Assembly (NCBI GenBank): GCA_002952755.1
Contig: CP025011.1
Coordinates: 1,230,001-1,262,000, forward strand
DNA: 32,000 nt
From: Candidatus Saccharimonadota bacterium
GTDB taxonomy: Bacteria > Patescibacteriota > Saccharimonadia > Saccharimonadales > UBA4665
Direction: 5' to 3'
Below the pieces are notes generated by a model. It was given only the letters and a program-made list of their open reading frames with translations. It did no database searches and was not told the origin of the DNA. Positions 1,558 to 32,000 of the stretch are shown piece by piece. A program made the position numbers and the translations under genes. Each line of letters starts with the position of its first letter. Position 1 is the stretch's first letter.

Positions 1558-1569
1558 GGTTATACCTTA

Positions 1570-1827: not shown

Positions 1828-1867
1828 CTTTCTATACCTCCGCTACAAGGGCTACGCATACATACTG

Positions 1868-1895
1868 ACATAACAACAAAATAAGGGCCCTTACG
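1868..1895 (-). terminator. Weak candidate terminator after the lysS/KTSC-Ham1 unit
   Basis: 12-nt palindrome TAAGGGCCCTTA (1882-1893) directly after the TAG stop (1896-1898), followed on the minus strand by TTATTTTGTTGTT. The stem is short. Confidence 0.3.
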
Positions 1896-2696: not shown

Positions 2697-2702
2697 AGTA
2701 AT

Positions 2703-4241
2703 CTAAGGCTCATTAGCTGCTGGAAGATGTAAGTCTGGATAAAGCCCTCTCGTGACTCCATCCACCTCGTATCGCAGATGTGGAAAAATAACACCCTCAC
2801 GGGCAGTAACACCTTCTAGATACCAAAATAACCGCTCTGACAGGCCAAAACCACATGCTGGAGGCATCGCATACTCTAAGGCTTCCACATAATCGATATC
2901 GAGCATCATCGCCTCATCGTCACCGGCATCACGCATGGCTTGTTGTTCTTTAAAACGATTGAGCTGATCAATTGGATCGTTGAGCTCTGAGTATGCCTTA
3001 CAAAGTTCGGTGCCGCCCAGCAAGAGATTAAATTGTTCTGTTAGTTCAGGTTTACCAGCTTGAGTTTTGGCAAGCGGCTGCAAAAAGGTAGGAATATCAA
3101 CCAAGAAGGCTGGTCCAGCAATCGTTGTCCGTACTTTCTTCCAAAGCTTATCGATTCCGCGTGAACGATTCTCGGTCTGCTCAACTTCTATGTTGTGTTC
3201 ACGAAGTTGTCCCTTCACTTCATCAAGTGTCGAATTGAAGACATCTAAACCGTACTTTTCTCGAATAATATCGACAAAACTTACACGCGGCCAGTCCTGT
3301 TCGTCGAGTCCTAAGTCGACCTTCATCCCATTTGTTAGGCTAAAATAGCGCGTTTGCCAGGTTTGATCTGCAATATAACGCACCAGACGCTGCGTTAGTT
3401 TCATACCCTTCCGCCAGTCAGCATATGCCCAGTACCATTCCATAGCTATATGCTCTGGCAAATGCTCATCCGAATAATTCTCGTTGCGAAACCGTGGTCC
3501 AATATCAAAGACCTTCTCATATCCGCCCACCAAAAGGCGCTTTAGCGGTAATTCATGTGATATGCGTAGATAAAAATCCTGGTCGAGCGCATCCATATGT
3601 GTAACGAAAGGAGTGGCGTCCGCACCACCAGCAGTTACTTCAAGCACCGGAATATTAATCTCAATGAATCCCTCGCCTAACAAGAATTCACGTGTTGCCT
3701 GCCAAAATATACTACGACGCAAAAAACGTTCAAACACGTCATGGTTTACATTTGTATCAATATACCTGCGCCTAAAACGCTCCTCTTTGTTCGTAAAGCC
3801 ATCTTGTGTGTTTGGCAAGGGTCGAAGTGCTTTTGTGAGTAAGCGGAGCCTACGTACTTCAATCGATATCTCACCCGTTTGCGTCTTAATAACCGGACCA
3901 CTAGCTTCCACGAAGTCACCTGAGTCAAGGAGGGACAATTGCTCAATGCCAAGCTGACTTTGTTCGCTATTTAAGCCTTCGACTAATCCTTCTCGAAGAA
4001 AAAGTTGGACCGTACCGCTCGCATCCCGTATGACAATGAAGGCAATCTTACCAAACTTACGAATGTTAATAATCCTACCCACAACGCTAACCTCACGGCC
4101 TTGCAGTTGGTCAAACTCGCGTGTTACCTGAATTAATTCATGGCTGCGATTAGCGGTTGCCGGATATGCATTAATGCCAAGTTCTTTTAGTTCACCCAAC
4201 TTGCGCAGTCGTTCATCGCGAAAATCTTTAAGTGTTGCCAT
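2703..4241 (-). CDS. lysS: Lysine--tRNA ligase, class II
   Basis: 512-aa ORF with an N-terminal OB anticodon-binding region and class II core motifs (FRNE..., GGTELCKAYSELNDP, GFGLSERL). Confidence 0.97.
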   Translation of the reverse strand: MATLKDFRDERLRKLGELKELGINAYPATANRSHELIQVTREFDQLQGREVSVVGRIINIRKFGKIAFIVIRDASGTVQLFLREGLVEGLNSEQSQLGIEQLSLLDSGDFVEASGPVIKTQTGEISIEVRRLRLLTKALRPLPNTQDGFTNKEERFRRRYIDTNVNHDVFERFLRRSIFWQATREFLLGEGFIEINIPVLEVTAGGADATPFVTHMDALDQDFYLRISHELPLKRLLVGGYEKVFDIGPRFRNENYSDEHLPEHIAMEWYWAYADWRKGMKLTQRLVRYIADQTWQTRYFSLTNGMKVDLGLDEQDWPRVSFVDIIREKYGLDVFNSTLDEVKGQLREHNIEVEQTENRSRGIDKLWKKVRTTIAGPAFLVDIPTFLQPLAKTQAGKPELTEQFNLLLGGTELCKAYSELNDPIDQLNRFKEQQAMRDAGDDEAMMLDIDYVEALEYAMPPACGFGLSERLFWYLEGVTAREGVIFPHLRYEVDGVTRGLYPDLHLPAANEP

Positions 4242-4260
4242 ATCTGTTTTATCTTACCAT

Positions 4261-4288
4261 ATTGTATGGCTCCATCTCTTACCACAAA
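4261..4288 (-). promoter_or_regulatory. Possible lysS promoter
   Basis: Minus strand TTTGTG (4283-4288), 16 nt spacer, TACAAT (4261-4266), 19 nt before ATG 4241. Weak -35, and no SD in the short leader. Confidence 0.25.
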
Positions 4289-4328
4289 ACCCTTGTATGG
4301 CAAATACTTGACTCAAGAGAGCTAGATT

Positions 4329-4790
4329 TTAGCCGATTTCAATAATCTTGTAGGTAGCGGTCTCGACTGGAGTCTTAATTTCTACTTCTTCGCCCTCTTT
4401 TTTGCCCATAAGTGCCTTACCAATAGGCGATTCGTCGGAAATCTTACCATTGAGAGGGTCGGCTTCTACCGTTCCAACAACCTGGAATTCTTTTTCCTTG
4501 CCATCACTGCTCTTTAAGCGGACCGTGGAACCAAGCACCGCCTTACTGTCACCCTTAGGGGCAGTAATAACCTGAACGTTCTTAAGGATGTGCTCAATCT
4601 CGGCAATACGATTTTCACTGCGTTCCTGATCTTGGCGAGCAGCCGTATATTCCATGTTCTCGCCAAGGTCGCCAAATTCGCGGGCTGTCTTGATACGGTC
4701 GGCAATAACCGCCCGCTGGCCGATAAGCCCTTGCAGTTCGGCTTTTAATTCTTCTACACCTTGTTGCGTTAAATGAAATAATTTGTTCAT
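4329..4790 (-). CDS. greA: Transcription elongation factor GreA
   Basis: 153 aa. N-terminal coiled-coil with the conserved REFGDLGENMEYTAAR stretch, and a C-terminal FKBP-like domain (ISDESPIGKALMGKKEGEEVEIKTP). Confidence 0.95.
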   Translation of the reverse strand: MNKLFHLTQQGVEELKAELQGLIGQRAVIADRIKTAREFGDLGENMEYTAARQDQERSENRIAEIEHILKNVQVITAPKGDSKAVLGSTVRLKSSDGKEKEFQVVGTVEADPLNGKISDESPIGKALMGKKEGEEVEIKTPVETATYKIIEIG

Positions 4791-4855
4791 GATGTTATCG
4801 TTCTTACTCCTTAAAATCCTCTGGTAGTACTCGTTCCGTAGCCCGATGACAGTTC

Positions 4856-4864
4856 ATTATATCA
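4856..4864 (-). promoter_or_regulatory. Candidate extended -10 promoter for greA
   Basis: Minus strand reads TGATATAAT (TGnTATAAT) at 4864-4856, overlapping the proS stop codon. No convincing -35. Confidence 0.4.
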
Positions 4865-6592
4865 ATCCTCTTTGCTTTGGACGACCATATTTATCACCTT
4901 GTCTTTCGCGACCAGTTGTGCTTCTTGGGAACGACGCTGCTTGACTTCGTACTGGTCATTGGCCAGCGTACGATCGCTAACGACTACCCTATATGGCAGG
5001 CCAATAAGATCAGCGTCAGCAAACTTCTCACCGGCCCGCGCCGCGAGGCGATCGTCATATAATACGCTAACGCCAGCCGCAGTCAAGCTTTGGTACAAAT
5101 CGTCGGCATGGGCGATTACCTCAAGCGATTCACCGAGCGGGGCAAGATACACGTCGTAAGGCGCCAGATTAGCAGGCCAAATGATCCCCTTACCGTCATT
5201 GTGAGCTTCAACTACTGCAGCTAGAGTTCGGCCGATACCAATGCCATAACACCCCATATAATATTTTTGGCGCTTACCTTCTTCGTCAGTGTACTCGGCG
5301 TCGTGCATGAGATTGGTGTAGTGATACCCTAACTGGAAAATATTCCCAACCTCAATCCCCTTCTTTTCTTTCAGCAACCCCCCATCGGGACATGTAAATC
5401 CAGCCTTAGCCAGTGCAATATCTGCTTCGACATCAGGCTTATAATCACGATCGATATTGATATTGAGCAGATCGGCACTCTTTTTATTGTTGCCCCCGTA
5501 CATGTTATGCACGGTGCGTAAGCTCTTGTCGGCAACAACGACAACCTCATGCCCGCTCTTGACCCCTTTCTTGACAAAACCAACAGGGCTGATAAAGCCT
5601 GGCTCGCTAGAAAGGTCCTCGCGGATCTCCTCTTCGGTTGCAGGGCGCAGTTCCCATGCACCTATTGCTTGCATAAGCTTAGTTTCGTTTACATCGAAAT
5701 CGCCGCGAATAATAGCTAGAATGTAGCGCTTGGTTGCTTCGTCGAAAAACAATACGTCTTTTACTTGCTGCCATAGGGGTAAATTATGGAATTGCACGCC
5801 GTCTTCCATAGTGGCGCCACGGACCGCCTCCACTTCTTTAAGATCATGGAGTTCTTCGTCAGTGTTCTTAGCGTCGACCTTAAATGTCGCCACATCTTCG
5901 TGTGCGGCATAGCCACTTGTCTCGTCTACAAAATAGCGACTTTCGCCCTGCTCGCTTTCAACGATAAACTCGTGGCAGTACTCTCCACCTATATAGCCGT
6001 TGTCAGCAGCTACCACATCCACCTGGAGGCCTAATTCAGTAAAGATCGCTTTGTAGGCATCCCACATCTGCTGGTAGGTTTCCTTAAACTGTGCTTCGGT
6101 GCCAAAACTATAGCCGTCCTTCATAACGAATTCACGAACTCGGAGCAACCCCCCACGGGAACGCATCTCATCGCGGAACTTCATGCTGAACTGATAAATA
6201 TTAAATGGCAAATCCTTGTAGCTGACATTAAACTTGCGTACTAAATCCACGGCCATTTCTTCGGCCGTTCCGCCAAGTGCAAAATCCGCACCACGACGGT
6301 CGGTAATCTTCATTAGCTCAAAACTTGCCGTGGTGGTCCGATTTGTTTCTTTCCAGAGTTCCAGAGGATGAAGCGTTGGCATAAGGACTTCTTGAGCGCC
6401 TGCGTCGTTCATGTGCTTACGCACGACAGCAGTTATTTTGTCGTGTACAGCCTGGCCGAGTGGCAACATGTAGTACCTGCCAGCAACTGATTCACGGATA
6501 AATCCACCTTGGGTCAAGAGACGATGCGAAGGGATCTTGTAGTCCGCCCCTTCTGTCTTAGAAGTCCTCCCAAATAATTGTGAGACCCTCAT
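4862..6592 (-). CDS. proS: Proline--tRNA ligase (bacterial type with INS editing domain)
   Basis: 576 aa. N-terminus MRVSQLFGRT...HRLLTQGGFIR, class II motifs, an insertion domain and a C-terminal anticodon-binding domain. SD AAGGAG (6599-6604) lies 6 nt upstream of ATG. Confidence 0.97.
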   Translation of the reverse strand: MRVSQLFGRTSKTEGADYKIPSHRLLTQGGFIRESVAGRYYMLPLGQAVHDKITAVVRKHMNDAGAQEVLMPTLHPLELWKETNRTTTASFELMKITDRRGADFALGGTAEEMAVDLVRKFNVSYKDLPFNIYQFSMKFRDEMRSRGGLLRVREFVMKDGYSFGTEAQFKETYQQMWDAYKAIFTELGLQVDVVAADNGYIGGEYCHEFIVESEQGESRYFVDETSGYAAHEDVATFKVDAKNTDEELHDLKEVEAVRGATMEDGVQFHNLPLWQQVKDVLFFDEATKRYILAIIRGDFDVNETKLMQAIGAWELRPATEEEIREDLSSEPGFISPVGFVKKGVKSGHEVVVVADKSLRTVHNMYGGNNKKSADLLNINIDRDYKPDVEADIALAKAGFTCPDGGLLKEKKGIEVGNIFQLGYHYTNLMHDAEYTDEEGKRQKYYMGCYGIGIGRTLAAVVEAHNDGKGIIWPANLAPYDVYLAPLGESLEVIAHADDLYQSLTAAGVSVLYDDRLAARAGEKFADADLIGLPYRVVVSDRTLANDQYEVKQRRSQEAQLVAKDKVINMVVQSKED

Positions 6593-6613
6593 GTGTAACT
6601 CCTTACTCTATAA

Positions 6614-6619
6614 ATTGTA
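6614..6619 (-). promoter_or_regulatory. Possible -10 box (TACAAT) for proS
   Basis: Minus-strand TACAAT at 6614-6619, about 21 nt upstream of ATG 6592 and just upstream of the SD. No good -35 found. Confidence 0.3.
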
Positions 6620-6644
6620 TGTGTAAATTGACTAAAAACGGTTA

Positions 6645-6675
6645 TAAGAAGAAAACTACGGCCTCTAGGGCCGGG
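6645..6675 (-). terminator. Weak candidate terminator after the CPBP protease gene
   Basis: Minus strand CGGCC-CTAGA-GGCCG (6659-6673, 5 GC pairs) followed by TAGTTTTCTTCTT. Confidence 0.3.
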
Positions 6676-6735
6676 ATCATGAGAATAATGCTACCAGTGT
6701 GGGTATACTGTTTCATCTCCGGCTAGTATAGCACA

Positions 6736-7521
6736 TTACTTACTGACAAAAATGAAAAGATAGAGATAGGCGACGCCATTCTTGAGCATATGTAAGAAGA
6801 CGCCAGACCACAGGCTGCCAGTCCGTTCCCGCAATGTGCACAATCCCAAAGACAGAATAAAGGTATCCAGTCCGCCTATCCATAAAAGCTTCCCATCACC
6901 TTCTAATAAATGTGGGATGGCAAAGAGGGCACTTACAATGAGCGTAGACCATACAAAAGGCAGTCGCTTGCGCAAACCACCAAAAAGCACGCCGCGGAAC
7001 AGCGTTTCTTCGACTAACGGTGGTAATACGACCAAACTCACAAAAGTCAACATTTTATCAAGATTGGTAATAACTACCGTAAAACCTATATCCTGTTTTT
7101 GGTCCACCTGTATATATGTGAACAGACCCACCACCACCGTAGCGACAACCAATAGAATATAGTACGCGATGCCCACTAGAACCGCCCAGATAGGATCGCT
7201 TAACCGGGGCTTCCTCGTAAATCCAGCTGCACGAAAACCGCCGCGCTTCCGCAAAAAAAACCACAATATAAGAAGCGTCAATCCTTCTGCTAGGACTACA
7301 TACACGAATTGACCCAGAGTGGAATTGACCCATACTTTTGCGTGGCCTTTGGTCATGTGTACTAGCAAGGGCACAATAATGACCACCCCAAGAGAAGCGA
7401 ATTGAGCAACTACGAAAGAAACAACGATCATGATCAACCCCAGCCCTGGGCCCCAGGACGGCGTCGGAAACACCCTGTTTTTGCCAGGTGTTAATGTCTT
7501 ACTAAAAGAATCTTCTGACAT
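6736..7521 (-). CDS. CPBP-family (CAAX/Abi-type) intramembrane glutamic endopeptidase
   Basis: Polytopic membrane protein with the three CPBP motifs: EETLFRG (EExxxR), FAIPH (FxxxH) and HMLKN (HxxxN). Its start overlaps the rseP stop by 20 nt. Confidence 0.85.
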   Translation of the reverse strand: MSEDSFSKTLTPGKNRVFPTPSWGPGLGLIMIVVSFVVAQFASLGVVIIVPLLVHMTKGHAKVWVNSTLGQFVYVVLAEGLTLLILWFFLRKRGGFRAAGFTRKPRLSDPIWAVLVGIAYYILLVVATVVVGLFTYIQVDQKQDIGFTVVITNLDKMLTFVSLVVLPPLVEETLFRGVLFGGLRKRLPFVWSTLIVSALFAIPHLLEGDGKLLWIGGLDTFILSLGLCTLRERTGSLWSGVFLHMLKNGVAYLYLFIFVSK

Positions 7522-17809: not shown

Positions 17810-20800
17810 CTAGTTGCGCGCAGCAAATTGCGCCTGTAGGTCGATGTAGTCTAGGTAGACCGATACACTTGTGGTTCCGATCGTTTTAGCGAGGCTATTT
17901 TGAAACGTCGTATTCCGGCCGGCACCTGTTGGAATATTGGAAGTCACCTGGCAATCGTCCACCCCATTGACGTAGAAATCGGCTGACGTACCAGTCGTAT
18001 TTACTGCCACAGTCAGTCTATACCAAGTGCCAGCAGACACGGCAATAGTAGTATCGCAGGTTGTCGAAGAACTATTGCTATTACAAACTCCTTGCCACTT
18101 ACCGCCATTGACGTTATCACTATATTTAAAGTAGCAGCCATCTGCTCCATCAATGTTGCCTAAATTATTGGCATCGTCAAAGCCAGCACGATAAATAAAG
18201 CGCTGCGTACCGGTTGAAAGTACGGGGATCTTGACGTCTGTCTCATAGCGCCAATAGTCTCCGTTGCCAAGCAAGATACTGCTTTCATTCCGATCTGAGG
18301 AACTCACTAGACTAGCGCCGGCTGCAGTCGTGCCTGTTTCTTGCTCTACAATTCCCGGGTGGCCGGTCGCGCCCGCCTGCGTGCCGTCATCATTAACTGC
18401 ATTTGTACCTGAGACAGCAAAGGTAAAGTAAGCATCGTTTGTGGCACTAATCATCTCATTGGTTATGTTCCAGTCAGAATTTGCGCTCGCTATGCAGTCT
18501 CGCCAAAAGCCAGCCTCACGGCAACGGAATTTATTAAGGCTAGAATTGTAGTACATTGCACCATCGACACCAGTTGGATCGCCGGTATTAGTCTTGTTAC
18601 CCAGGACGAGAATTGTACCCGTAGTATCCCCTGCGGACGGGCCGATAATGATTTTATCGTTGGCAGTGTCCACAGTTAAATAGTTAACGGAGCTTGAGTT
18701 TTGAACTATGAACGCCGTTGCCGAGTTGGTGTTAGTATGGACTTTCGTGCCTGCAGTAGATGCATTGGTAGTAAGATTGATATTCCCTGTGCCGCCCTGA
18801 ATAGTGGTAGCACTAGAACCGTTAGTGCTGCCGATAGTAACTGTATCTACGCCCGCCCCCGTGGCACTGCTAGCGATATTGACAGTTTGAGTGTTGGTCG
18901 TTGCCGCATCGCCGATGCTGATTGTGTTCGACGATGTTGATCGCCCTATGGTAATGGCTCCTGTTTGCGACGTGCCGCCCAGTGTCGTTGTCCCCGTTGT
19001 CGATCCGCTGCCAAATAACAGATTTTCATTGAAAAGAGATCCTAAGGATAGGGTACCACTCGCTTGGGCGTCAATCTGTACAGCAGATGCGCCGTTACCA
19101 CCTTGGATGCTCGTCGTTGAAGAAGAGCCTGATGATCCAATAGCTATGGTTTGAGTAGCAATAACATTGCCGATATTAATAGTGCCGCCCGAGCTGCCGC
19201 CTTTTATATTGACCGTCGTACTGTTTGCGATCGCACTACCAATATTGATAGTCTCGGAGTTCGAACCATTACCAAGATTCAAGCCGCCTGACGAACCGCC
19301 GAGAATGGTCGTGACGTCTCCCGAGTTGTCCGAGCCGATATTGACGGTCTGAGTACCGCTCGAGTCTGTGGCTATATTGACCGTGGAACTTCGGAGGCCG
19401 TTTTGCGCACCGATGTTGACGGTACCGGCATTCGACGTGCCTACATTTACGGTGCCAGTTCCGCCGGTATCCAGAAGGAGAGTGTTAGTACTCGCCGCCT
19501 GAATAGTAAGGTTGCCCGCGCTTGTCGACCATGTCGAGGCCGCACCTGCTGTAATCGTGACGCCATTCCCTTGAATGACGGTCGTGCCGGTTGCATTCGG
19601 GCCCGAACCAATGTTAACTGCCGATCCGCCACCAGCCGTGTTGGTGTAGCCAATATTAATTGTTGCCGTGCCGGAATTTTGAGCTGTGCTACCAATGTTA
19701 GTAACCGTATTAGCGTTGGGCGAAGTCTCAATATTGGTCGTCGTGCCGTTAAAGGCTGAACCAGTGCCTCCAGTCGAACCTCCCGTCGAACCAAGGTTAA
19801 TATATCCGCCACTAGAGTCCACTGCAAAAAGCGTGTTGCCTGCACTGTTCTCGATCTGAACAGTTGTCGTAGAGTCAGTGGTTGGTTTTTCAAAAAACTG
19901 TCCCTGGATAGCAAAGCCAAAGACAACAGCTCCTAACCCTGATGCATTTTGTGCTCTTAGGCTCAAGAAGTTACCGCCACCAAGGCCGCCGTTTGCATCC
20001 TGAATATTTATATCATTGACTGCGCTGCTAAGCTTGATGGTTGTATTAGCGCCACCGGCTGAGGCGTTGTAGGCGGTCTGCAGCGAGCAACCGCTTGCGC
20101 TGTTGTCTGTACAGATGTTTGCGTTAGCATTAACAGCTGGCAAAGTAAGCGCGAAGTTGCCGGTATTTGGTGTCGTGGGACCCTGTAATGTCAGGGTACC
20201 CGTACCACCTGATCCTTTGAAGACGATGGCGCCTGTATTAGATGAGGCCGTACCAAGCGTCAGTGCATTATTATTGGTAAAGATGCCTGTGCCACCCTGA
20301 ATGGCTGCAGTTGTGGTGATCGTATTGCCCGTCGATATCGTGCCAAAACCGGAAGCAATAGAGCCAGTCGAAAGAGCGCCAACTTTTTGCAAATTACTGT
20401 AGGTAGCTGACGAATCGATTGCAGCATTCTGCAATAGTCCAGTCCCAGATAACAGCGTCGTACCGTTATAGCTCAACAGGCTACTAAAACCAGTGCCGAA
20501 TGCAATGCCATTAAAGGTGTTGTTGGTAGCAGCCGATACACTTCCGAAGCTTAAGCCAGTGATCGTGTTCGAACCGGAAGCGTTATTTGTGCCTGCGAGA
20601 TTAATTGCAACACCCTGTAAGGTTGTCGTGCCACTGCCGGCGCTATCTGTAACTGCAAAGGTGCTCGCGCTGCCGCTGGTTACGTTCAATGTTTGTGTAA
20701 ATAGCTCGCCGATGCCAACGGTCGTACCATTATCAGTAATGCCCGAGTTGCCAAGCGTCTGGGAACCGGTAAACTTGGCGATTGTATTATTCGTACCGCC

Positions 20801-23800
20801 GGCAGTAGTCACTCCGCCGCCGCTGCCGGCACAGTTACCAGAATCAGTGCAAATAATTCCACTAGCGTCAGGTAGGGTCAGCGTTCTGTTGGCGGTTGGT
20901 GTGCCAGGCACAATTGTTACTGTGTTGCCATTCGAAGCATTATTAAATACCAACGTACCATCTAAGGTGCTAGCTTTCCCTAAAATGAGCGAGTGTCCTG
21001 ATGTGCTGACCGTCAGAACAGTATTGCCAAGTGCGTTCTGTACATTGAATGCATTGGTTGAATCGCTGCCATTTTCGAAAGCTACGGTGGCGCCGGTAAA
21101 TGTTTGGCTGGCGTTCAATTTTGCCAGATTACTATCGTTACTCAGATTCGCCGAGGATATCTGCGTACCATTAATTTCGTACACATGGCCAGATGTAAGG
21201 TTGAAGTGGCCGCTTGCAGTGAGGACGCCGCCGGATTGGGCAAGGAGTGAATCACCAATTACCTGCGAACCGGTAAAGACCGGCAGCGTACCGATGGTAC
21301 CGCCCGCAGTGGTAACACCCCCACCAGCGCTAGAACAGTTACCAATAGTCGTACAGATAGTATACGTCCCTGCTGTTGCCGCGCGGTCGAAGTTGTATGT
21401 TACCGCACCAACGGGAGTCCCCGAAAAGCCTACTGTTGTTGTGAAACCGCCACCAGTAGCAGTAAACGTAGAGCTGGCGTTGCCTTGCAACGTCAGTGTT
21501 TGCCCCGTTGCGCCAACAGTAAGTGAACCGCCTGGCGTTATGCTTAATGCGCTCCCAGAGCTCAGCGTACTGCCATTAACTGTCAGATTGCCGCTGAATG
21601 TCGCATCACCGGCGGCTGCAATAGCCAAACGAGTAAGTCCATTTGTGCGGATATTGAGGGCGTTATTATCGTTCGTGCCCAACACGCCAGCGGCGCTAAA
21701 ACTATTACCATTCTGAACAAAGGCAGAACCGCTACCTGTCGCGAACCCACAGTTTGAGCTGTTATTAAGGCAAACAGTGCCCGTACTATCTGGCAGCGTA
21801 ATGGTCCGCGCCGCAGTAGCTGTGCCAGTAATAGTAAAATTATTTGTCCCTGGCGTTAGCGAACTGCCTGCAATATACAAATTGCGGAATGGCGTTGAAC
21901 TTGCGCCAAGATCTACTGTGGTGCTGCCAGGTAATAGCGACGTGTTAATTGCTACTGAACTTAGATTAGAAAGCGCCGTGTTGGCACCACCGCCACCACC
22001 GCCCAAGCAGTTTCCACTGCTCAAACAAACAGTACCGCTGGCATCTGGTAGCGTATATGTCTGTGCGCCCGTCAACGCACCTTGGACTAATGTTCCGCTA
22101 AAATTCGCTGCACCATAGGCTAACACCAAAGATCCCGTCTGGCTATTAGCAATGCCCAGAGTGGCGCTACCGCCCTGAACTACCAGGTTCACGCTCGTCG
22201 TAACAGTTGTACCCGTGTCGCTAATGGTAGAATTGCCAATCGTACCGCCAGTGCTGGTAAACTTTGCCAAACGATTGTTCGTACCCGAGCCCGTAACTCC
22301 GCCACCGCTTCCTGCGCAGTTGCCACTAGTTAGACAAATGGTCGCAGTGCCGGCGCCAGGATCCGGTAATGTGTACACTGTGTTCTGTCCGAGAGCCGCC
22401 GTCACTATATTGCCGGTGTGCGTAGCACCGTCATTGAGCGACAGCGTACCAGCTTGGGCATTCGTTCCAAGGGTAATGGTACCGCCTTGCAAATTTGCGT
22501 TGCCACTTGCGGTAAGCGCAACTATATTAATTAGGTTGCCACTATTATCTACCCTAGTAACTCCACTGGTTTGCAGCGCCCCACCAGAAGAATTGATATT
22601 CCCGGAACCCGAATATGTAGTACCTCCAGAAATGGCACCAGACAGTGTAACATTGCCGATATTCAGCGCATTGCCACTATTATCTATCCTCGTAGTTGAG
22701 TTAGTCTGGATCGCTCCGCCTGTAGTGTTGATCGTGCCCGAGCCTGTATAGGTTGTACCCCCAGAAATAGATCCAGCTAATGACATGCTGCCGATGTTAG
22801 CCAGATTACCGGCGTTGTCTACGCGCGTAATACTGTTGGTCTGGAGTGTACCGCCGCTGCTATTAACAGTACCGCTGGCTGTAAAGCTACCCGTGACGCT
22901 TGCACCGCTAGTGGTAACAGCTAGGTAGGTCGTAGAACCAGCATTGTTTTGTACTTCAAATAAATTAGCACCAATAGGCGTAGCATTATCACGCACCGTT
23001 AGTGCCCCCCTGGTTGCATCAAGCGTAATCTCAGGACTCGTAGAGTTGTTATAGGCAGACTGGAGGGTAACCGCTGCACCTGCACAGTTGCCTATGCTCA
23101 AACAAACAGTACCCGAAGCATCGGGCAATGTGATAGTTCGATTGCCACTTACGGCTGCCGATATTAGTGCAACAGTATTTGCATTGCTGGCGTTATCAAA
23201 TAAAAGCTGGCCGGCTTGGGTACCAGCTTGCCCTAATTCAACGTCTCCAACCGAAGTATTAATACTAAATAAGCCAGCTCCGCCAGCATTCTGGACTGCA
23301 AAAGCCAGTGCGGAATCTGCCGTATTCTTAAATGTATTGGTAGCGCCGGTAAATGTTTGGCTGGCGTTCAATTTTGCTAAATTGCTGTCATTACTTAAAT
23401 TGGCAGATGTTATTTGTGAGCCATTCACTTGAAATAGATGACCACTGGTTAGATTGAGATTGCCATTGCTCGTCAGGACGCCGCCGGATTGGGAAAGAAG
23501 TGAATCTCCAACCGTTTGCGCCCCAGTAAAGACGGGCAACGTACCAGTTGTACCGCTGCCGGAGACCGTGCCGCCTAGCCCAACACAATTGCCAAATGTC
23601 GTACAAACGTCAAACGTACCGCCGCTAGTAGTAGCAAAACGATATGTTGTGTTGGCAGTCGGGGTCTGAAAATTAAGTGTCGTAGAAAGAGCCCCGCTTG
23701 TAGCGCTTATAAGGCTCCCTGCCGCTCCCTGCAAAGTAAAGTTTTGTGTGGCAGAACCAACCGTTAATGCCGCACTAGGCGTAATAGTATTTGTGTTCAC

Positions 23801-25132
23801 GCCTGCAAACGTCGGTGAAGCTGCGGTGTTAATATTCTGAACGGTATTTACTACGCCGCTTAAAACTGAAAAATTGGTAGCACTAAAGCTCGCGATACCC
23901 TTGCTTCCAGTTGTAGCATCATTAATGGTAACCGCCGATCCTGATCCGGTAGAGTTGGCAATCGTTAGAGCCCCTGTCAACCCGTCTAACGACGTTACGC
24001 CACCCCCACCAGAACATGAGGCAAACGCCGGTGTCCCGGCCGTAGAAACCAAACACAAACCAGCGCTAGCCGCAGTTACTGAATTGATTACTCCTGCCCC
24101 ATTACCTACAAGCACGCCATTCGCCGCAAGCGTATTCGCTCCCGTTCCTCCGTTTGTCACGCCGAGCGGCGTACCGAGCGTGGCGCCGCCTGAAACATTC
24201 AAGTCACCTGTTACCGTGACCGTAGTGCCACTTTGGCTAATCACCGAATCACCAATAGCTTGGGCTCCCGTAAATAGAGCGACTTGTCCGGCCGTACCGC
24301 CAGTACTCGACACCGTACCCGTTCCAGCTCCCACGCTACTAATTGTCAAATTTCCATTTGCATCACTCGCGATCTGTAAGTTTGTCGTGCCCGCCGTCAA
24401 GCTTAGGATGCTGGCATTTTGCAATGTAGCGCCATTCATCTTTAGACCACTGCCGACACTAATTGCCCCGCTCTGGCCGCCAAACGACACAACTCCTGCG
24501 TTTGCCAGCTGATTACCCACCACACTCAGGCCACCGCCCAAAGTAACATCCCCGCTTAAACCTCCCACAGTTTGGACCACTGTGCCTGATGCGCTGAGCG
24601 GGACGAAAGCCGTACCATTGTAATACGCGAGTTCGTTTGTATTTTGGTCATAATAGATTTGGCCGGCCTTTGGTGCGTTCGGTTGTACCGAAGGCGCAAC
24701 GACCAATCCGTCATTCAGTCTCATCGCGCCGTTTACGACCACACTGCTTGTGCCAAAATTAACCCCTTGCTCATTCACCACAAAACCGCTCAGAGGAATC
24801 TGAACGGAACTATACTGGTTCTGGATATTATTGTTAGCAGATTGTGTCGGCCGTTTGTGCGTATTAGCAACAACCAGACCAATGAGACCCAAACAGAGCA
24901 ATACAACCAATACGATATCAGCGCGACGCAACGCTTGTACAATTCGCTGAGTCCGGGTCTTAGGTTTCACAATCGGCACGGCTGGAGATGGCCGCGACAG
25001 AGAATCGGGGTCAAGAGATAATCCCTCTAGACCTAATAAGCTAGTTGCCGGAGTAGGGCTTGAAATCGTTGGAGACTGTCCCACACCATCGCCAGCAAAC
25101 GCAACACCGGTATTTTGGTCTTGGTTTTCCAC
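17810..25132 (-). CDS. Giant (2,440 aa) N-terminally membrane-anchored, Gly/Thr/Ser/Asn-rich modular fibre/adhesin-like surface protein with a LamG/ConA-like C-terminal domain
   Basis: Uninterrupted 7.3-kb ORF with a GTG start in the track. Single TM at aa 73-89 (nt 24866-24916). Repeated TLPD-x-SGT-x-C-x5-7-C modules. C-terminal 227 aa with GTWYRLTVAVNTTGTSADFYVNG. No C-terminal sorting signal. Confidence 0.9.
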   Translation of the reverse strand: MENQDQNTGVAFAGDGVGQSPTISSPTPATSLLGLEGLSLDPDSLSRPSPAVPIVKPKTRTQRIVQALRRADIVLVVLLCLGLIGLVVANTHKRPTQSANNNIQNQYSSVQIPLSGFVVNEQGVNFGTSSVVVNGAMRLNDGLVVAPSVQPNAPKAGQIYYDQNTNELAYYNGTAFVPLSASGTVVQTVGGLSGDVTLGGGLSVVGNQLANAGVVSFGGQSGAISVGSGLKMNGATLQNASILSLTAGTTNLQIASDANGNLTISSVGAGTGTVSSTGGTAGQVALFTGAQAIGDSVISQSGTTVTVTGDLNVSGGATLGTPLGVTNGGTGANTLAANGVLVGNGAGVINSVTAASAGLCLVSTAGTPAFASCSGGGGVTSLDGLTGALTIANSTGSGSAVTINDATTGSKGIASFSATNFSVLSGVVNTVQNINTAASPTFAGVNTNTITPSAALTVGSATQNFTLQGAAGSLISATSGALSTTLNFQTPTANTTYRFATTSGGTFDVCTTFGNCVGLGGTVSGSGTTGTLPVFTGAQTVGDSLLSQSGGVLTSNGNLNLTSGHLFQVNGSQITSANLSNDSNLAKLNASQTFTGATNTFKNTADSALAFAVQNAGGAGLFSINTSVGDVELGQAGTQAGQLLFDNASNANTVALISAAVSGNRTITLPDASGTVCLSIGNCAGAAVTLQSAYNNSTSPEITLDATRGALTVRDNATPIGANLFEVQNNAGSTTYLAVTTSGASVTGSFTASGTVNSSGGTLQTNSITRVDNAGNLANIGSMSLAGSISGGTTYTGSGTINTTGGAIQTNSTTRIDNSGNALNIGNVTLSGAISGGTTYSGSGNINSSGGALQTSGVTRVDNSGNLINIVALTASGNANLQGGTITLGTNAQAGTLSLNDGATHTGNIVTAALGQNTVYTLPDPGAGTATICLTSGNCAGSGGGVTGSGTNNRLAKFTSTGGTIGNSTISDTGTTVTTSVNLVVQGGSATLGIANSQTGSLVLAYGAANFSGTLVQGALTGAQTYTLPDASGTVCLSSGNCLGGGGGGANTALSNLSSVAINTSLLPGSTTVDLGASSTPFRNLYIAGSSLTPGTNNFTITGTATAARTITLPDSTGTVCLNNSSNCGFATGSGSAFVQNGNSFSAAGVLGTNDNNALNIRTNGLTRLAIAAAGDATFSGNLTVNGSTLSSGSALSITPGGSLTVGATGQTLTLQGNASSTFTATGGGFTTTVGFSGTPVGAVTYNFDRAATAGTYTICTTIGNCSSAGGGVTTAGGTIGTLPVFTGSQVIGDSLLAQSGGVLTASGHFNLTSGHVYEINGTQISSANLSNDSNLAKLNASQTFTGATVAFENGSDSTNAFNVQNALGNTVLTVSTSGHSLILGKASTLDGTLVFNNASNGNTVTIVPGTPTANRTLTLPDASGIICTDSGNCAGSGGGVTTAGGTNNTIAKFTGSQTLGNSGITDNGTTVGIGELFTQTLNVTSGSASTFAVTDSAGSGTTTLQGVAINLAGTNNASGSNTITGLSFGSVSAATNNTFNGIAFGTGFSSLLSYNGTTLLSGTGLLQNAAIDSSATYSNLQKVGALSTGSIASGFGTISTGNTITTTAAIQGGTGIFTNNNALTLGTASSNTGAIVFKGSGGTGTLTLQGPTTPNTGNFALTLPAVNANANICTDNSASGCSLQTAYNASAGGANTTIKLSSAVNDINIQDANGGLGGGNFLSLRAQNASGLGAVVFGFAIQGQFFEKPTTDSTTTVQIENSAGNTLFAVDSSGGYINLGSTGGSTGGTGSAFNGTTTNIETSPNANTVTNIGSTAQNSGTATINIGYTNTAGGGSAVNIGSGPNATGTTVIQGNGVTITAGAASTWSTSAGNLTIQAASTNTLLLDTGGTGTVNVGTSNAGTVNIGAQNGLRSSTVNIATDSSGTQTVNIGSDNSGDVTTILGGSSGGLNLGNGSNSETINIGSAIANSTTVNIKGGSSGGTINIGNVIATQTIAIGSSGSSSTTSIQGGNGASAVQIDAQASGTLSLGSLFNENLLFGSGSTTGTTTLGGTSQTGAITIGRSTSSNTISIGDAATTNTQTVNIASSATGAGVDTVTIGSTNGSSATTIQGGTGNINLTTNASTAGTKVHTNTNSATAFIVQNSSSVNYLTVDTANDKIIIGPSAGDTTGTILVLGNKTNTGDPTGVDGAMYYNSSLNKFRCREAGFWRDCIASANSDWNITNEMISATNDAYFTFAVSGTNAVNDDGTQAGATGHPGIVEQETGTTAAGASLVSSSDRNESSILLGNGDYWRYETDVKIPVLSTGTQRFIYRAGFDDANNLGNIDGADGCYFKYSDNVNGGKWQGVCNSNSSSTTCDTTIAVSAGTWYRLTVAVNTTGTSADFYVNGVDDCQVTSNIPTGAGRNTTFQNSLAKTIGTTSVSVYLDYIDLQAQFAARN
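20825..21545 (-). repeat. Internal ~240-aa module, copy B (paralogous to 23071-23790)
   Basis: Encodes SITPGGSLTVGATGQTLTLQG...GTLPVFTGSQVIGDSLLAQSGGVLT...ANLSNDSNLAKLNASQTFTGAT...RTLTLPDASGIICTDSGNCAG. A 35-nt run at 21090-21124 is identical to 23343-23377. Confidence 0.85.
22505..22900 (-). repeat. Three tandem 135-nt (45-aa) coding repeats inside the giant gene
   Basis: Units: ...SGTVNSSGGTLQTNSITRVDNAGNLANIGSMSLAG / SISGGTTYTGSGTINTTGGAIQTNSTTRIDNSGNALNIGNVTLSG / AISGGTTYSGSGNINSSGGALQTSGVTRVDNSGNLINIVALTASG. TTGCCACTATTATCTA recurs at 22536 and 22671. Confidence 0.85.
23071..23790 (-). repeat. Internal ~240-aa module, copy A (paralogous to 20825-21545)
   Basis: Encodes TITPSAALTVGSATQNFTLQG...GTLPVFTGAQTVGDSLLSQSGGVLT...ANLSNDSNLAKLNASQTFTGAT...RTITLPDASGTVCLSIGNCAG. 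The offset to copy B is 2,253 nt over most of its length. Confidence 0.85.
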
Positions 25133-25178
25133 GATTGTTTTTGTTTTTCTCTCATTACAGAGAGTTCTCCCTAATAGT

Positions 25179-25207
25179 ATCGTACGTGCTTATGTTTTCC
25201 TTGACAA
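25179..25207 (-). promoter_or_regulatory. Possible internal promoter in front of the giant gene
   Basis: Minus strand TTGTCA (25202-25207), 17 nt spacer, TACGAT (25179-25184), inside the 114-nt gap between the 284-aa gene and the giant gene. Confidence 0.35.
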
Positions 25208-25246
25208 GCTTTTTTCGTGCTAGATATAGCAAAAACCTGTGGATAA

Positions 25247-26101
25247 CTAGGTAGTTAAAATAAGATAGATGACGATAGCGGCGAATACCAGCATACCCAA
25301 AACACTGAGGCCCACCTCGAGTAAACTTTTATAGATTGATTCCTTGGATAATGGGTTACGTCCGATCGAAATGATGCTTGAACGTATAGAGGAATATAGC
25401 AGCACCGTAACCACTGTAAAAAGTAATAGCACGAGCAGAGCAGAGATAACGACCCGCATGGAAGATACTTCGTGGCCGGCAACTGTGCTTGCAAATTGCT
25501 GCAGCACGGGTGGTAAGAATGAATTCTGGCTTGGAGTTGCTTGGTAGAAAACCTTGTCGACCTGTACAGGAATCGCCCCAATGCGAACCGTTTTTTCCTT
25601 ACCATGTCTGTCAGTGACCGATCGGGAATCGGTATCCGCCGTGGAAAGATCTGCCTGAGCAGTACCAATAACCAGAGTACTCGCAGTCGCTTTCATGCCC
25701 ACGCCTGCAATTGGCGAAGCGGCAATCTTGTCGCCGTCTTTAATCGAACCATTAATGTCACTAACGAGTACGGTGACCGACCCATTTGTCACCACCTGTA
25801 CTGAACTTTTTCCAGTTGTGAGCTCTATTACTGATTTATTGCCCACGACTCCCAGCAAGCGCTCGGCATTATCCTCAGTTCCAAGCTCCAAAGTATTAGG
25901 AGTGCCTTGCTTAAGACTAACAAGCGCGCCGACAACGATTTTTGTGTCGGTGCTTTGAAAACCCTGAGAGATAGAAGAGGTCCCTTGGGCATGCACACCT
26001 GGTGTCATAAGTGTCAAAAGCAATATTACCGTGCCACTCCAGGTATACTTCATTCTCTGACCGATTGTCCGTCGCCTGACCAACATGTTGCAGAGCCCCA
26101 C
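25247..26101 (-). CDS. Hypothetical exported protein: signal peptide, beta-rich ectodomain, C-terminal two-helix membrane hairpin with an R-N-P loop
   Basis: Track ORF with a GTG start at 26101. In-frame ATGs at 26086 and 26053 (MKYTWSGTVILLLTLMTPGVHA-QG is a classic signal peptide). C-terminus VVISALLVLLLFTVVTVLLYSSI-RSSIISIGRNPLSKESIYKS-LLEVGLSVLGMLVFAAIVIYLIL. A candidate -10 TATAAT lies at 26121-26126 (minus). Confidence 0.75.
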   Translation of the reverse strand: MGLCNMLVRRRTIGQRMKYTWSGTVILLLTLMTPGVHAQGTSSISQGFQSTDTKIVVGALVSLKQGTPNTLELGTEDNAERLLGVVGNKSVIELTTGKSSVQVVTNGSVTVLVSDINGSIKDGDKIAASPIAGVGMKATASTLVIGTAQADLSTADTDSRSVTDRHGKEKTVRIGAIPVQVDKVFYQATPSQNSFLPPVLQQFASTVAGHEVSSMRVVISALLVLLLFTVVTVLLYSSIRSSIISIGRNPLSKESIYKSLLEVGLSVLGMLVFAAIVIYLILTT

Positions 26102-28523: not shown

Positions 28524-28640
28524 TTGGATAGGTGTCGTCACCACAATCGTAAGCCCCTTTTTGCATGGTAGTACTATACGGCTAGCCGCTATGCTCATAT
28601 CGACTTGCTGTCATTGAAAAAAATCGTTACATTGAAATGT

Positions 28641-29168
28641 ATGACAGATCACCCCAGCCCAGAACAACCCACGTCGCAAAACATTGCATCTAAAACTCGA
28701 TCAAGCAGACCAAGACGCTTGCTATATATAGGCTTGCTGATTGTGATCCTTTCGGCCGCCGGTATTGGCTACTTCTTTTGGAGACACCAAGGTAAAAATC
28801 CATTGCTCGCGGATTTACAGACTACCCCAAACTTTCCGCTATACTACCCCACCCTCCCTACGGAATTTACCTACAAAAAAGGGTCTGGTAGCCTTCGGAG
28901 TGGCGTCGTCTTTTTTGCTATAGAAAAAGGTGACGAAACGACTCTTATAAGTGAGCAGGCAGCTCCGACTACGAGTCCTCCCAAGCTAGACGACCTGAAA
29001 GGTTTTACCAAACTAGCCATACCTGCGGGAAATGCCGTGATTGGCGCAAACGCAAACCAACCCGTAGCCATTATTCTTAGTAACACGACGCTTATCACAA
29101 TCAACGGCCAAGCAAATACGCCCAGCGATGTAGTTAGTAGCATCGCTAAAAATATGAGCTCACTCTAA
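28641..29168 (+). CDS. Hypothetical single-pass membrane-anchored protein with an extracytoplasmic domain (DUF4367-like layout, tentative)
   Basis: Track ORF 28605..29168 (TTG). In-frame ATG at 28641. TM LLYIGLLIVILSAAGIGYFFW after a basic stretch. Ectodomain begins PLYYPTLPTEF. No SD for either start. Confidence 0.65.
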   Translation: MTDHPSPEQPTSQNIASKTRSSRPRRLLYIGLLIVILSAAGIGYFFWRHQGKNPLLADLQTTPNFPLYYPTLPTEFTYKKGSGSLRSGVVFFAIEKGDETTLISEQAAPTTSPPKLDDLKGFTKLAIPAGNAVIGANANQPVAIILSNTTLITINGQANTPSDVVSSIAKNMSSL

Positions 29169-29182: not shown

Positions 29183-32000
29183 CTACATACCTGTCACTGA
29201 GACACCATCAAGCGTAATCGTATTGCCTACCGATGCTGTGCCCCATACAGGGAAGATATATAAGTTTTGTGCAGTCGTGTTGATTGTAGTAGCAGTAGCT
29301 CCAGAGTTAATCCAATAATCGGCCGAACCTGTGCCATTTGTGTCGTAATGGAGTATGCCCTCGCCAACCACGGATGTACTCGAGTAGCAATTGATCTGAA
29401 ACTCCATATTCCATCCATTTGAAGAGGCCGATCCAGGATAAACCGCCGGCAATACGCCTACTACCTTATTCGCAGCGTTGGTCCTTGTACTACTTGTTCC
29501 TATATATATCCCTACCTGTAAGTTCTGGTTTGAGGGGGTTGTAAATGTGCCCCAAATAGACATTTTAACGACCTTGCCCGCCTGACAATAATTGGCCGGA
29601 ATCGCAATGTGGTCCTGCGTCGTTCCCTGTTGTGAAACGTTAAATGCTGCACATGCTGTTGAACAGTTTGAAATGGTCGAGGACGCCGTATTAGAAGCCA
29701 ATAGTCCCCCAAGACATCCTGCCCATGCTCCGGATTGACCACATCTGAAGCTGTTGGTGCTTGAATTATAGTACATTGCTCCGTCTACCTCACCCGGTTC
29801 AGTAGCGGTATTGTAGTTGTTAACGATAAATAATATTTGATTAGCGTTGGCCGTGGCCGAGCCAACCTGAAGCTTAAATGGGGTCGAGCTACTAGTATCG
29901 ACAGTCAAAAGGTTAACGGAGCTACTGCTCTGTATTTGGAATGCGGTTGCCGAAGTAGTATTGGCTTTAAACAAAGCCGTGCCGCTTGCCGTAATTTGCA
30001 GAACATTATTCGCTCCACTGTTCTTTTGCACATCCAACAAATCGCCTGTCTGCGTCGACGAGTTGCCTTGTATTTGTAAGGCTATATCGGCGTCGCGACC
30101 TGCAGCGACATATACCGATGTTCCGGTTGCGCCCGCCACGAAGTTCGGCGGCGTTGAGCTCTGGCGGTCACCGGTCAAGATTGTCGACCAATATGCGCCC
30201 ATCTGTAAATCATTCCCACCGCCCCCTTGCCAATATATATCCCCGCCGCTCGAACCGATACGGAAATTCCCGGAACCGCTCGTATTAGAGAATAGTAACT
30301 GCGATACGTGGGCCGCAGTCCCGGGGGTCGAATTATAGATCTCCAGCTGATTATTCACAAGTAATTGGGAAGTTATAATCCCGCTATCTGATGCTGTCGG
30401 CGCAACTCCACCGCTCGACCAACCTGCATATACGGCACCAACCTGCCCTGTGCTCGTTGCAGTGCCGCCCTGCAAATATATTGCCCCGCCTGCGTTAGCA
30501 CCTGTTCCGGTAGCATTGCCAGCCGTAAGAGTAATGTTACCTCCAGCACTACCGGCCGCTGCATTGCCGCCAGCACCGCCTTGCAATGTAATACCAGCAC
30601 CAGCACCGGTTCCAGAGGAAGTACCCCCCGTAATCTGCACTGTACCACCAGAGGTATTGCCCCCGCCAGCTGCGCCCCCAAGCAAGACCACTCCCCCTCC
30701 AGCACCACTTGCACCGCCGGTGCCCCCTAGTAGTTCCGCAATACCACCCGCCCCCGTCGTGTTGCCCGTAGCGCCCTGAAGCTCAAGTGTATCACCGGCG
30801 GTAGCCGCGGTTGTCTGAGTAGCACCAGTTATGATAATCGGACTTGTATTTGTAGCACCAAATGTAAAACCTGACGAAGTAATCGTATCGGTATTGTACG
30901 TGCCTGTTGCGGTGATATTACCCGTGGAACTTACGGCCAAGACAGTTGTGCCGCTTCCATTCAAGAGATCCAGAATATCGCCGGAGCCGCTTGCATTGGC
31001 TTGCAACACCCCCGCTACGCTGCCGCTGGTAGCAGCCTGTACATTAAAGTTAGCCTGCTGTGTGGATAATGCGTTGTTAATAGCGGTACTGCTCACAAAA
31101 GCTGTGAAGACAGCCGATATGGTGTTAGCCTCGCCCGAAGTGTTCTGGTTAGCAGTTGGTTGGTAAGCGGTACCGGCAGTTACATTCGTATTGTATGTAA
31201 CAACATTGGTCTGACCGGTAATCTTATAGGTGAATCCAGAGCTAGCACCAGCTGTAGCCGGTGTACGCTGCACCTGGGCATAGCCTTCAAATAATTCTCC
31301 AGAAATTTGGGGAGTTAGGCTGGAAAATGTCACTGTTGATGAACCCGAAGAGATGCGCGATCCGTTTGTGTCAACACCCCAAGATGTGCCTGCATTGACT
31401 CCGCTCGCCGTATACTCAGTGGCGACGATTTCATTATTATTGCCCAGACCAGATGATGACAGCGTAATAGTCCCTGCTCCCGTACTCGTAACTGTTCCCA
31501 TCCACATCTCCACCCGGTTGACCGTGCCGTCACCCGCCAGAAAGCCCACGCGCGTCCACGTTGTTACGCCACCGCCAGAAATGCTAGTTATTGCATTGCC
31601 ACTCGGTATCTGTGCTGCAACTACGATAAGATTTCCGACGGTTGTTGGACTATCACTCACAGTTGTAACTGTAGTGCCTGAGCCATGATTATCAGTTTCA
31701 TTTACTTCGGTGATGCTTGCATTTGAGTTGGAGCACGAACTGAAAATTAGTTGGGTTGCAGAGCTAGAGCTAGTTTCCAGACACAATCCTGTCGTTGGTG
31801 CGCTCGTCGGCAGTGTCAGTGTATAGCCCGAGGCAGTGCTGTTGGTACTCGCGTTAATTGTTATCGGATTACCGGCAGTCGTGGTGTTAAACAACAAACT
31901 ACCCGCCTGATTGGTATCGGTGCCCAGTACGGCCTGTTTGGAAATCGTATTTACACTAAACACATTATTCGTACCGTCATTAACCGCAAAGGTATTTGCT
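29183..32000 (-). CDS. Second giant fibre/adhesin-like surface protein, paralogous to 17810..25132; only the C-terminal ~938 aa or more lie in the window (5' end beyond the right edge)
   Basis: The frame is open from 31963 to the window end (ANTFAVNDGTNN precedes the track start, which is a GTG). Shares with the giant gene the AF-x-[VI]Q-x(8)-L-x-VDT repeats, the TLP...C...C element and the VDGAMYYNSS-x-N-x-FRC-x(3)-G-x-W-x-x-C collar (29714-29785). Confidence 0.88.
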   Translation of the reverse strand, partial: ANTFAVNDGTNNVFSVNTISKQAVLGTDTNQAGSLLFNTTTAGNPITINASTNSTASGYTLTLPTSAPTTGLCLETSSSSATQLIFSSCSNSNASITEVNETDNHGSGTTVTTVSDSPTTVGNLIVVAAQIPSGNAITSISGGGVTTWTRVGFLAGDGTVNRVEMWMGTVTSTGAGTITLSSSGLGNNNEIVATEYTASGVNAGTSWGVDTNGSRISSGSSTVTFSSLTPQISGELFEGYAQVQRTPATAGASSGFTYKITGQTNVVTYNTNVTAGTAYQPTANQNTSGEANTISAVFTAFVSSTAINNALSTQQANFNVQAATSGSVAGVLQANASGSGDILDLLNGSGTTVLAVSSTGNITATGTYNTDTITSSGFTFGATNTSPIIITGATQTTAATAGDTLELQGATGNTTGAGGIAELLGGTGGASGAGGGVVLLGGAAGGGNTSGGTVQITGGTSSGTGAGAGITLQGGAGGNAAAGSAGGNITLTAGNATGTGANAGGAIYLQGGTATSTGQVGAVYAGWSSGGVAPTASDSGIITSQLLVNNQLEIYNSTPGTAAHVSQLLFSNTSGSGNFRIGSSGGDIYWQGGGGNDLQMGAYWSTILTGDRQSSTPPNFVAGATGTSVYVAAGRDADIALQIQGNSSTQTGDLLDVQKNSGANNVLQITASGTALFKANTTSATAFQIQSSSSVNLLTVDTSSSTPFKLQVGSATANANQILFIVNNYNTATEPGEVDGAMYYNSSTNSFRCGQSGAWAGCLGGLLASNTASSTISNCSTACAAFNVSQQGTTQDHIAIPANYCQAGKVVKMSIWGTFTTPSNQNLQVGIYIGTSSTRTNAANKVVGVLPAVYPGSASSNGWNMEFQINCYSSTSVVGEGILHYDTNGTGSADYWINSGATATTINTTAQNLYIFPVWGTASVGNTITLDGVSVTGM
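30422..30790 (-). repeat. Glycine-rich tract of about six ~17-18-aa coils inside the second fibre gene
   Basis: AGGIAELLGGTGGASG / AGGGVVLLGGAAGGGNTS / GGTVQITGGTSSGTGAG / AGITLQGGAGGNAAAGS / AGGNITLTAGNATGTGAN / AGGAIYLQGGTATSTGQ. Each coil has the core G-G-x-[IV]-x-[LI]-x-G-G. Confidence 0.7.

Follow-up and report, generated by a model that had tools for sequence, protein, structure and literature searches.

The closest described counterparts of the proteins reported here are the mosaic adhesive trimer (MAT) fibres of Bdellovibrio. Caulton et al. (2024, PMC10769870) describe them as trimeric fibres that start with a signal peptide and a conserved N-domain of ~130 amino acids (aa), and that end in swapped C-terminal tips, lectin and TNF-like folds included; these fibres bind glycans and are exposed at the surface. 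A fibrous stalk with an exchangeable distal binding domain is also found in phage tail fibres and receptor-binding proteins, for example those with T4 gp12-type Tail Collar tips or the C-terminal β-sandwiches of depolymerases. Among the lectin-tipped adhesins of Gram-positive bacteria, SraP (L-lectin module, PDB 4M00) is a monoderm surface protein that displays a lectin-fold module on a long stalk of repeats. Here we compare with these systems two genes, A and B, located on the reverse strand of a 32,000-nucleotide stretch of a Candidatus Saccharimonadota genome (GenBank assembly GCA_002952755.1, contig CP025011.1, positions 1,230,001 to 1,262,000; hereafter the window). Both encode long fibre-like proteins in which a common stalk and a ~90-aa cysteine-containing collar precede different C-terminal tips, and we report that syntenic orthologues exchange these tips exactly at the collar.

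Saccharibacteria are ultrasmall parasites within the Patescibacteria or candidate phyla radiation (CPR), and their cultivated members live attached to host Actinobacteria; like Bdellovibrio, they must recognise other bacteria. Within the library searched, we found no paper linking MAT fibres to Patescibacteria or Saccharibacteria.

Two mosaic paralogues with a common stalk and collar

Comparison of the part of B present in the window with protein A by BLASTP gave one strong high-scoring segment pair of 84 aa, 46% identical (E 1e-18), from ATAFQIQSSSSVNLLTVDT... to VDGAMYYNSSTNSFRCGQSGAWAGC. This similarity, which is far beyond chance, spans the segment from NT(T/N)SATAF(Q/I)(I/V)Q..SSSVN.LTVDT to VDGAMYYNSS.N.FRC...G.W..C. 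The original prediction, made on the window alone, held that the partial open reading frame (ORF) B and the 2,440-aa protein A have stalk elements, a TLP...C...C element and this collar in common, all of which are borne out at the coordinates it gave. The TLP...C...C element occurs six times in A and three times in full-length B. A second common block, of 305 aa with 59% identity (E 1e-68), connects A to a region of B outside the window. Judged by their sequences, A and B are true paralogues of mosaic structure.

The stalk is long, rich in Gly, Thr, Ser and Asn, and built from the repeated elements T.AF.vQN...vDT...IG and TLPD..G..C..C. The collar follows the consensus DPTGvDGAMYYNs...FRC...G.W..C over ~90 aa, with two invariant cysteines, and had no match in Pfam, NCBIfam or PDB sequence searches. 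AlphaFold2 (AF2) monomer models of stalk and collar are of low predicted confidence (pLDDT 45-76), a result compatible with an obligate oligomer that is not evidence of one. The stalk of B additionally contains a globular insert, found three times in tandem in the related fibre L025 (3058-5889; 41-56% identity by tblastn), for which no Pfam match or family name was obtained. Inside gene A, several long plus-strand ORFs of up to 407 aa (window 19403-24512) are probably antisense shadows of a repetitive gene of biased composition and not genes themselves.

BLASTP found nothing significant between A and B past the second collar cysteine, so that the tips, whose boundaries had been placed correctly in both proteins, indeed cannot be aligned. 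A comparison of profile hidden Markov models (HMMs) with hhalign agreed, detecting no homology between the tip A family (70 sequences) and the tip B family (21 sequences; probability 0.6%, E 0.096). The two tips thus appear unrelated as far as sequence profiles reach.

Tips are exchanged at the collar of orthologous genes

Orthologues of B were recognised by their position upstream of p187–parA, p187 being a small ORF between B and parA. At this position, L003 (N-domain 41% identical to that of B) and L006 (N-domain undetected, the ORF being cut at its 5' end) carry a B-type tip. The closest relative, L010, whose N-domain is 65% identical to that of B, carries an SO2946-type tip (E 1.8e-36), the type found in A. 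Other tips are present in L002 and L015 (N-domains 56% and 48% identical, respectively) and in L013 and L019, in both of which the N-domain was undetected. The tip of L019 gave a weak match to tail cluster 1 (E 2e-9) and resembles the tail of protein P0041; it was left out as a firm A-type tip.

Wherever an orthologue has another tip, its BLASTP alignment to B breaks off at B residues 1436-1446, which is the end of the collar, and the junction sequences switch one residue past the second cysteine. Tips are therefore exchanged exactly at the collar among syntenic orthologues, and the expected pattern of a conserved shaft and collar with swapped distal domains is confirmed. At the A position (upstream of LytR), L021, from another Saccharibacterium, encodes an A-like protein (ORF 2-6898) with an N-terminal part 48% identical to A. 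After aa 2022, past the collar, its tail combines a Phage Tail Collar domain (E 7e-26 to PF07484) with a region that resembles T4 Gp10_C and contains His-rich motifs.

A large family with the collar as a repeated module

A collar profile built from 26 collars (89 positions) was searched against 1.84 billion proteins. At E ≤ 1e-3 it matched 3,486 representatives, hence at least that many clusters at 50% identity, and at the stricter E ≤ 1e-10 it matched 1,970; some of these proteins reach 5,789 aa. Nearly all members whose origin could be traced come from Patescibacteria. Most of the 150 top matches hold 2-9 complete copies, which makes the collar a repeated stalk module; A and B each have one complete collar plus partial matches to its first half. 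In 137 out of 178 proteins, 100-250 aa separate the last complete collar from the C-terminus. The 147 post-collar tails of 80-330 aa form 25 BLAST clusters, among which hhalign linked only clusters 1 and 8; cluster 1, built by single linkage, is heterogeneous and includes short variants of 140-150 aa. Among 115 tails retrieved by an unbiased profile search, 52 were of the A type, 13 of the B type and 13 of a third type, the others being spread across 22 further clusters. Together with the syntenic loci, these tails substantiate the exchange bounded by the collar in homologues.

A genome scan with a six-sequence collar subset and the exact pattern [GE]VDGAMYY gave 33 loci, a small and biased sample. 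Their titles name Saccharibacteria or Saccharimonad- taxa in 22 cases, the Patescibacteria group in three, Roizmanbacteria in one and 'bacterium' in four; the three with other names are L010, L009 and L029, the last two being titled Pristimantibacillus and Gammaproteobacteria. L010 (DATLCF010000002.1, 557 kb), titled 'Nevskiaceae bacterium', has the Saccharibacteria gene order and the ParA closest to that of the window (80% identity), and is probably a mislabelled metagenome-assembled genome.

Folds of the two tips

The C-terminal 311 aa of A, when scanned alone, clearly match the Pfam family PF22237 (SO2946-like_C), scoring 64.8 bits where 27 would suffice (E 1.2e-17), and also match Laminin_G_3. 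PF22237 is likewise matched by 19 of 22 aligned tip A relatives. The match is missed when full-length A (window 17813-25132) is scanned because the biased composition of the stalk masks the domain, which may be a reason why such proteins stay unannotated. The AF2 model of tip A, with a pLDDT above 90, has SO2946 as its top Foldseek match (2a5z; E 3.7e-9, TMt 0.59-0.61), followed by legume lectins, the receptor-binding domains of clostridial neurotoxins (BoNT Hc) and, at rank 12, the SraP adhesin. Tip A is hence a concanavalin-like lectin domain, with a predicted β-sandwich fold.

Tip B and seven relatives form a family with a conserved cysteine pair (IPANYC ... I.C), which has no relevant Pfam match, even when scanned alone, and is not PF22237. 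Foldseek searches of its model against the PDB gave weak matches to β-sandwiches, the best being legume lectins (E 6.5e-4), together with the TNF-like tip of Bd2734 (TMt 0.45). Against the predicted viral structures of BFVD, the model of the B collar plus tip matched many Caudovirales proteins (E 8.6e-12, TMq ~0.5), depolymerase and tail-fibre C-terminal regions included. When the two tips, the two full-length proteins and the collar profile were searched against PDB sequences, no significant match was returned. Pfam and NCBIfam scans with the whole of A and B were likewise uninformative, apart from the sub-threshold N-domain match of B described below.

N-termini of the two proteins

Gene B is truncated by the end of the window, which had left its anchor out of sight. 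The complete gene, encoding 1,612 aa, was recovered from a Logan contig (SRR9952761, L001:4546-9384) found through the ParA of the window, with 0 mismatches across 4,268 overlapping bases. The N-terminus of its product resembles a signal peptide (…SNHASA/ATNS), after which comes a conserved domain of ~130 aa (INFQARL..G.Y..F.LY…EMTPR). This domain matches the NCBIfam family Bdello_MAT_N (NF053851) over profile positions 7-78 of 162, with E 2.1e-4 and 21.1 bits against a 60-bit cut-off. All eight tested homologue N-termini also have NF053851 as their top or only family, at 17-45 bits (best 44.7), all below that cut-off. A profile search with the N-domain retrieved several hundred proteins, which were short or incomplete; every NCBI name shown was 'hypothetical protein', and the sources were Saccharibacteria, Patescibacteria, Woesebacteria, Nomurabacteria and a single bin under the label Actinobacteria.

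Protein A starts with about 70 residues containing Arg and Lys, ahead of a hydrophobic helix (aa 73-89) that would act as an N-terminal membrane anchor with its N-terminus inside, an orientation suggested by the positive-inside rule. The N-terminus would be the cell-proximal end in both proteins. Just past the helix of A (aa ~130-160, window 24650-24750, minus strand) lies a cysteine-free collar-like motif (GQIYYDQNTNELAYYNGTAFVPL), for which the collar HMM gives a very weak domain match (E 19).

Comparison with known fibres

A likeness to MAT fibres may exist at the N-terminus of B, with its signal-peptide-like sequence and a putatively β-rich domain matching NF053851 below threshold; it is present in the long fibre with diverse, independently folding C-terminal tips, which in MAT fibres are swapped between paralogues; the tail clusters, and syntenic orthologues with N-domains 41-65% identical to that of B but with different tips, represent the same property here. 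On the other hand, the N-domain matches (21-45 bits) cover about half of the profile, A uses a transmembrane helix as its anchor, and the Cys collar GAMYYN...FRC...W..C is not among the MAT features given in the part of PMC10769870 considered. The fibres also come from Patescibacteria, and their trimeric state is predicted by analogy. One MAT subgroup ends in a C-terminal S74 peptidase/chaperone; Pfam gave no S74 match in A, B or ten scanned tails, and A and B would fall in the non-S74 subgroup. An S74 chaperone suspected from sequence in the 484-aa tail of L013 obtained no Pfam support either and was dropped. The Saccharibacteria fibres resemble MAT fibres on every point that could be tested, which falls short of establishing membership in that family.

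As for phage fibres, distal regions resemble virion fibre proteins in several instances: the B model matches in BFVD, the L021 tail with PF07484 and Gp10_C, and tip A, which is 34.5% identical to the C-terminus of gp18, a protein of 973 aa that Pseudanabaena phage Pan5 encodes in its tail-fibre module. This was the one match of tip A in GenBank phages, among which B had none. Unlike phage fibre genes, A and B are chromosomal, lie among housekeeping genes with no virion genes nearby, and encode proteins anchored by the membrane or through secretion. Tip A is by score and fold a member of the SO2946-like_C family (PF22237; PDB 2A5Z, from Shewanella oneidensis) of the concanavalin A-like lectin/glucanase superfamily, but here it forms the end of a fibre of 2,440 aa; tip B does not belong to the family. 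The comparison with SraP is limited to the lectin-fold module on a long stalk: A and B have neither the serine-rich repeat glycoprotein architecture nor an LPXTG anchor, and their binding module would stand at the C-terminus, the opposite polarity.

Interpretation and alternative explanations

We regard it as reasonably probable that A and B are cell-anchored adhesive fibres with receptor-binding tips shuffled by recombination, a variant of the principle seen in phage tail fibres and Bdellovibrio MAT. The N-terminus would hold each fibre at the cell, through the transmembrane helix in A and through the cleavable signal peptide and MAT_N-like domain in B. A β-stalk of repeated elements would lead to the collar and then to a C-terminal β-sandwich of 100-250 aa that folds independently and, on the host or target cell, most likely binds a surface glycan or another epitope. 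Recombination may use the conserved collar as a homology patch at which one tip is replaced by another, and such replacement would give each genome and lineage a different set of binding specificities. By analogy with described fibres, we infer that A and B are displayed at the surface, form oligomers (probably trimers), bind ligands and take part in attachment to the host. The original prediction had recognised a pattern of phage tail fibres and polymorphic adhesins; modular exchange stands, but the fibres are cellular, encoded on a Saccharibacteria chromosome, and not those of a phage. It had also proposed diversifying selection on the tips and two binding specificities, which may apply here.

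Several observations weigh against this reading. The collar is not limited to the tip junction and may be mainly a structural repeat of the stalk. The MAT_N match of B stays below the curated cut-off (21 versus 60 bits) on part of the profile only, and protein A gave no match to NF053851. The AF2 model of tip B reaches only moderate confidence, with a pLDDT averaging 69 and rising to about 75 within the tip. No relative of the collar was found in IMG/VR (pattern scan) or in GenBank phages, which leaves a direct phage origin unsupported. Finally, the host-attachment factor with experimental support in cultivated Saccharibacteria is the type IV pilus (PMC9894109, PMC11623550), so far the main such factor for epibiotic Patescibacteria. 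A transposon sequencing (Tn-seq) study in Saccharibacteria pointed only to 'multiple adhesins', with other domains (PMC10633639).

The two tips might instead have diverged rapidly in place from one concanavalin-like or jelly-roll ancestor. Both models are all-β sandwiches, and the legume lectins that come out best for B belong to a class that also matches tip A; yet those B alignments have TM scores of 0.32-0.38 at an rmsd of about 10 Å and include the collar, the tips differ in length (175 versus 226 aa) and cysteine pattern, and hhalign gives no support. We consider this origin unlikely; moreover, syntenic orthologues hold clearly different families, Phage Tail Collar included, and this requires replacement whatever the relation between tips A and B. 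Structural envelope components, such as S-layer, sheath or fibrils, whose C-termini vary to evade phages or host defence or to self-assemble, would suit giant, repetitive, low-complexity secreted proteins encoded beside LytR-CpsA-Psr, signal peptidase and HtrA, with the collar as a repeated stalk unit. Such a role seems distinctly improbable given that the lectin fold of tip A is one used by adhesins and the receptor-binding domains of toxins, that a conserved proximal end with a variable distal end is the arrangement of receptor-binding proteins, and that four syntenic relatives do without gene A.

A conserved motif ahead of variable C-terminal cassettes, in giant proteins that are secreted, also recalls the layout of polymorphic toxins (PMC3482391). 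We nevertheless give very little credence to polymorphic toxin or contact-dependent inhibition proteins, since the tips are lectin-like β-sandwiches that match no toxin family, LytR comes directly after gene A, and p187, downstream of B, is retained irrespective of tip type (beside the B orthologues of L002, L003, L006, L010 and L019, by tblastn) on the opposite strand, which argues against a cognate immunity gene. Tail fibres of a prophage or tailocin are equally hard to credit: the Foldseek likeness to phage proteins, the tip A domain in a phage tail module and the relative with a Phage Tail Collar end are set against housekeeping flanks (RF1, PrmC, HtrA, LytR, ParAB, signal peptidase and aminoacyl-tRNA synthetases), the total lack of PHROG matches, N-termini with a transmembrane anchor or a signal peptide, and a collar missing from the viral collections searched.

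Returning to adhesive fibres with shuffled tips, a bolder extension would see the collar fibres as determinants of host range in Saccharibacteria and other Patescibacteria, a phylum-wide set of receptor-binding proteins shuffled by recombination, with an N-domain ancestry common with the prey-recognising Bdellovibrio MAT fibres and tips borrowed from phage tail fibres. We hold it only tentatively and find it rather doubtful. If it were true, bacteria living on bacteria would have converged on, or inherited, one 'phage-like' recognition apparatus, with the Cys-collar as its junction for recombination and folding. A large unannotated family of anchored fibres, whose lectin-like and phage-like tips change at a fixed junction, would supply concrete candidate determinants of host range. 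The GAMYYN...FRC...W..C collar would offer a simple sequence handle for finding fibres and delimiting their tips in metagenomes, and an evolutionary connection of the family with Bdellovibrio MAT fibres and with the receptor-binding proteins of phages could be tested.

Gene neighbourhood and feature coordinates

The window encodes RF1, PrmC, HtrA, LytR-CpsA-Psr, signal peptidase I, ParA/ParB, LysRS- and ProRS-like synthetases, GreA, UppS and RRF; no phage genes were found in it, the PHROGs search giving no match. Contigs with Candidatus Saccharibacteria, Saccharimonadia or Patescibacteria in their titles repeat the order B–p187–ParA–ParB–signal peptidase–LytR, with ParA 58-80% and LytR 46-59% identical to those of the window. 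Because of this recurrence, the window is assigned to a Saccharibacteria chromosome and not to a phage. Coordinates of the features are collected in Table 1.

Gene A and p284 (window 17810-26101) sit between signal peptidase I and LytR, which are directly adjacent in L002, L010, L013 and L019, where both genes are absent; A and p284 are thus either a lineage-specific insertion or were deleted elsewhere. In the p284 protein, a signal peptide and an ectodomain rich in Ser, Thr and Val precede two transmembrane helices at the C-terminus; Pfam matches it weakly to the minor capsid protein gp53 of XM1 (E 7e-4). Since a homologue (27% identical; L032 4099-4776) adjoins a collar protein in a Roizmanbacteria contig, p284 may anchor the fibre or be its partner.

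Table 1. Coordinates in the window of genes A and B, their parts and two neighbouring genes
Feature	Position	Strand	Evidence
Gene A, 2,440-aa fibre protein	17810..25132	-	ORF list and translation
Tip A, 226-aa concanavalin A-like lectin domain (Pfam PF22237, SO2946-like_C)	17813..18490	-	Pfam, AF2, Foldseek
Collar of A	18491..18757	-	collar HMM E 3.5e-40; sequence checked
Stalk block of A, 59% identical to B aa 270-565	19478..20344	-	BLASTP E 1e-68
Putative N-terminal transmembrane anchor of A (IVLVVLLCLGLIGLVVA, aa 73-89), basic residues before	24866..24916	-	sequence reading
p284, secreted/membrane protein directly upstream of gene A	25247..26101	-	synteny comparison
p187, small membrane-protein ORF between gene B and parA	28605..29168	+	tblastn synteny
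Gene B, fibre paralogue, 3' 2.8 kb in window, continues past window end	29183..32000	-	translation
Tip B, 175-aa C-terminal domain, predicted β-sandwich, unnamed family (cluster 2)	29186..29710	-	alignment with relatives, AF2, Foldseek
Collar of B, ~90-aa module ...TAFQIQ..VDT...IG....GEVDGAMYYNSSTNSFRCGQSGAWAGC	29711..29992	-	collar HMM domain E 2.6e-33; 46% identity to A collar
Globular insert in B stalk, ~220 aa, full-length aa ~770-990	31052..31714	-	tblastn
TLP...C-x15-C stalk element of B (TLTLPTSAPTTGLC-x15-C)	31733..31822	-	sequence

Elsewhere in the window, a 226-aa protein with a DUF11 repeat (E 4e-6; 832-1512, plus strand) is another likely surface protein.

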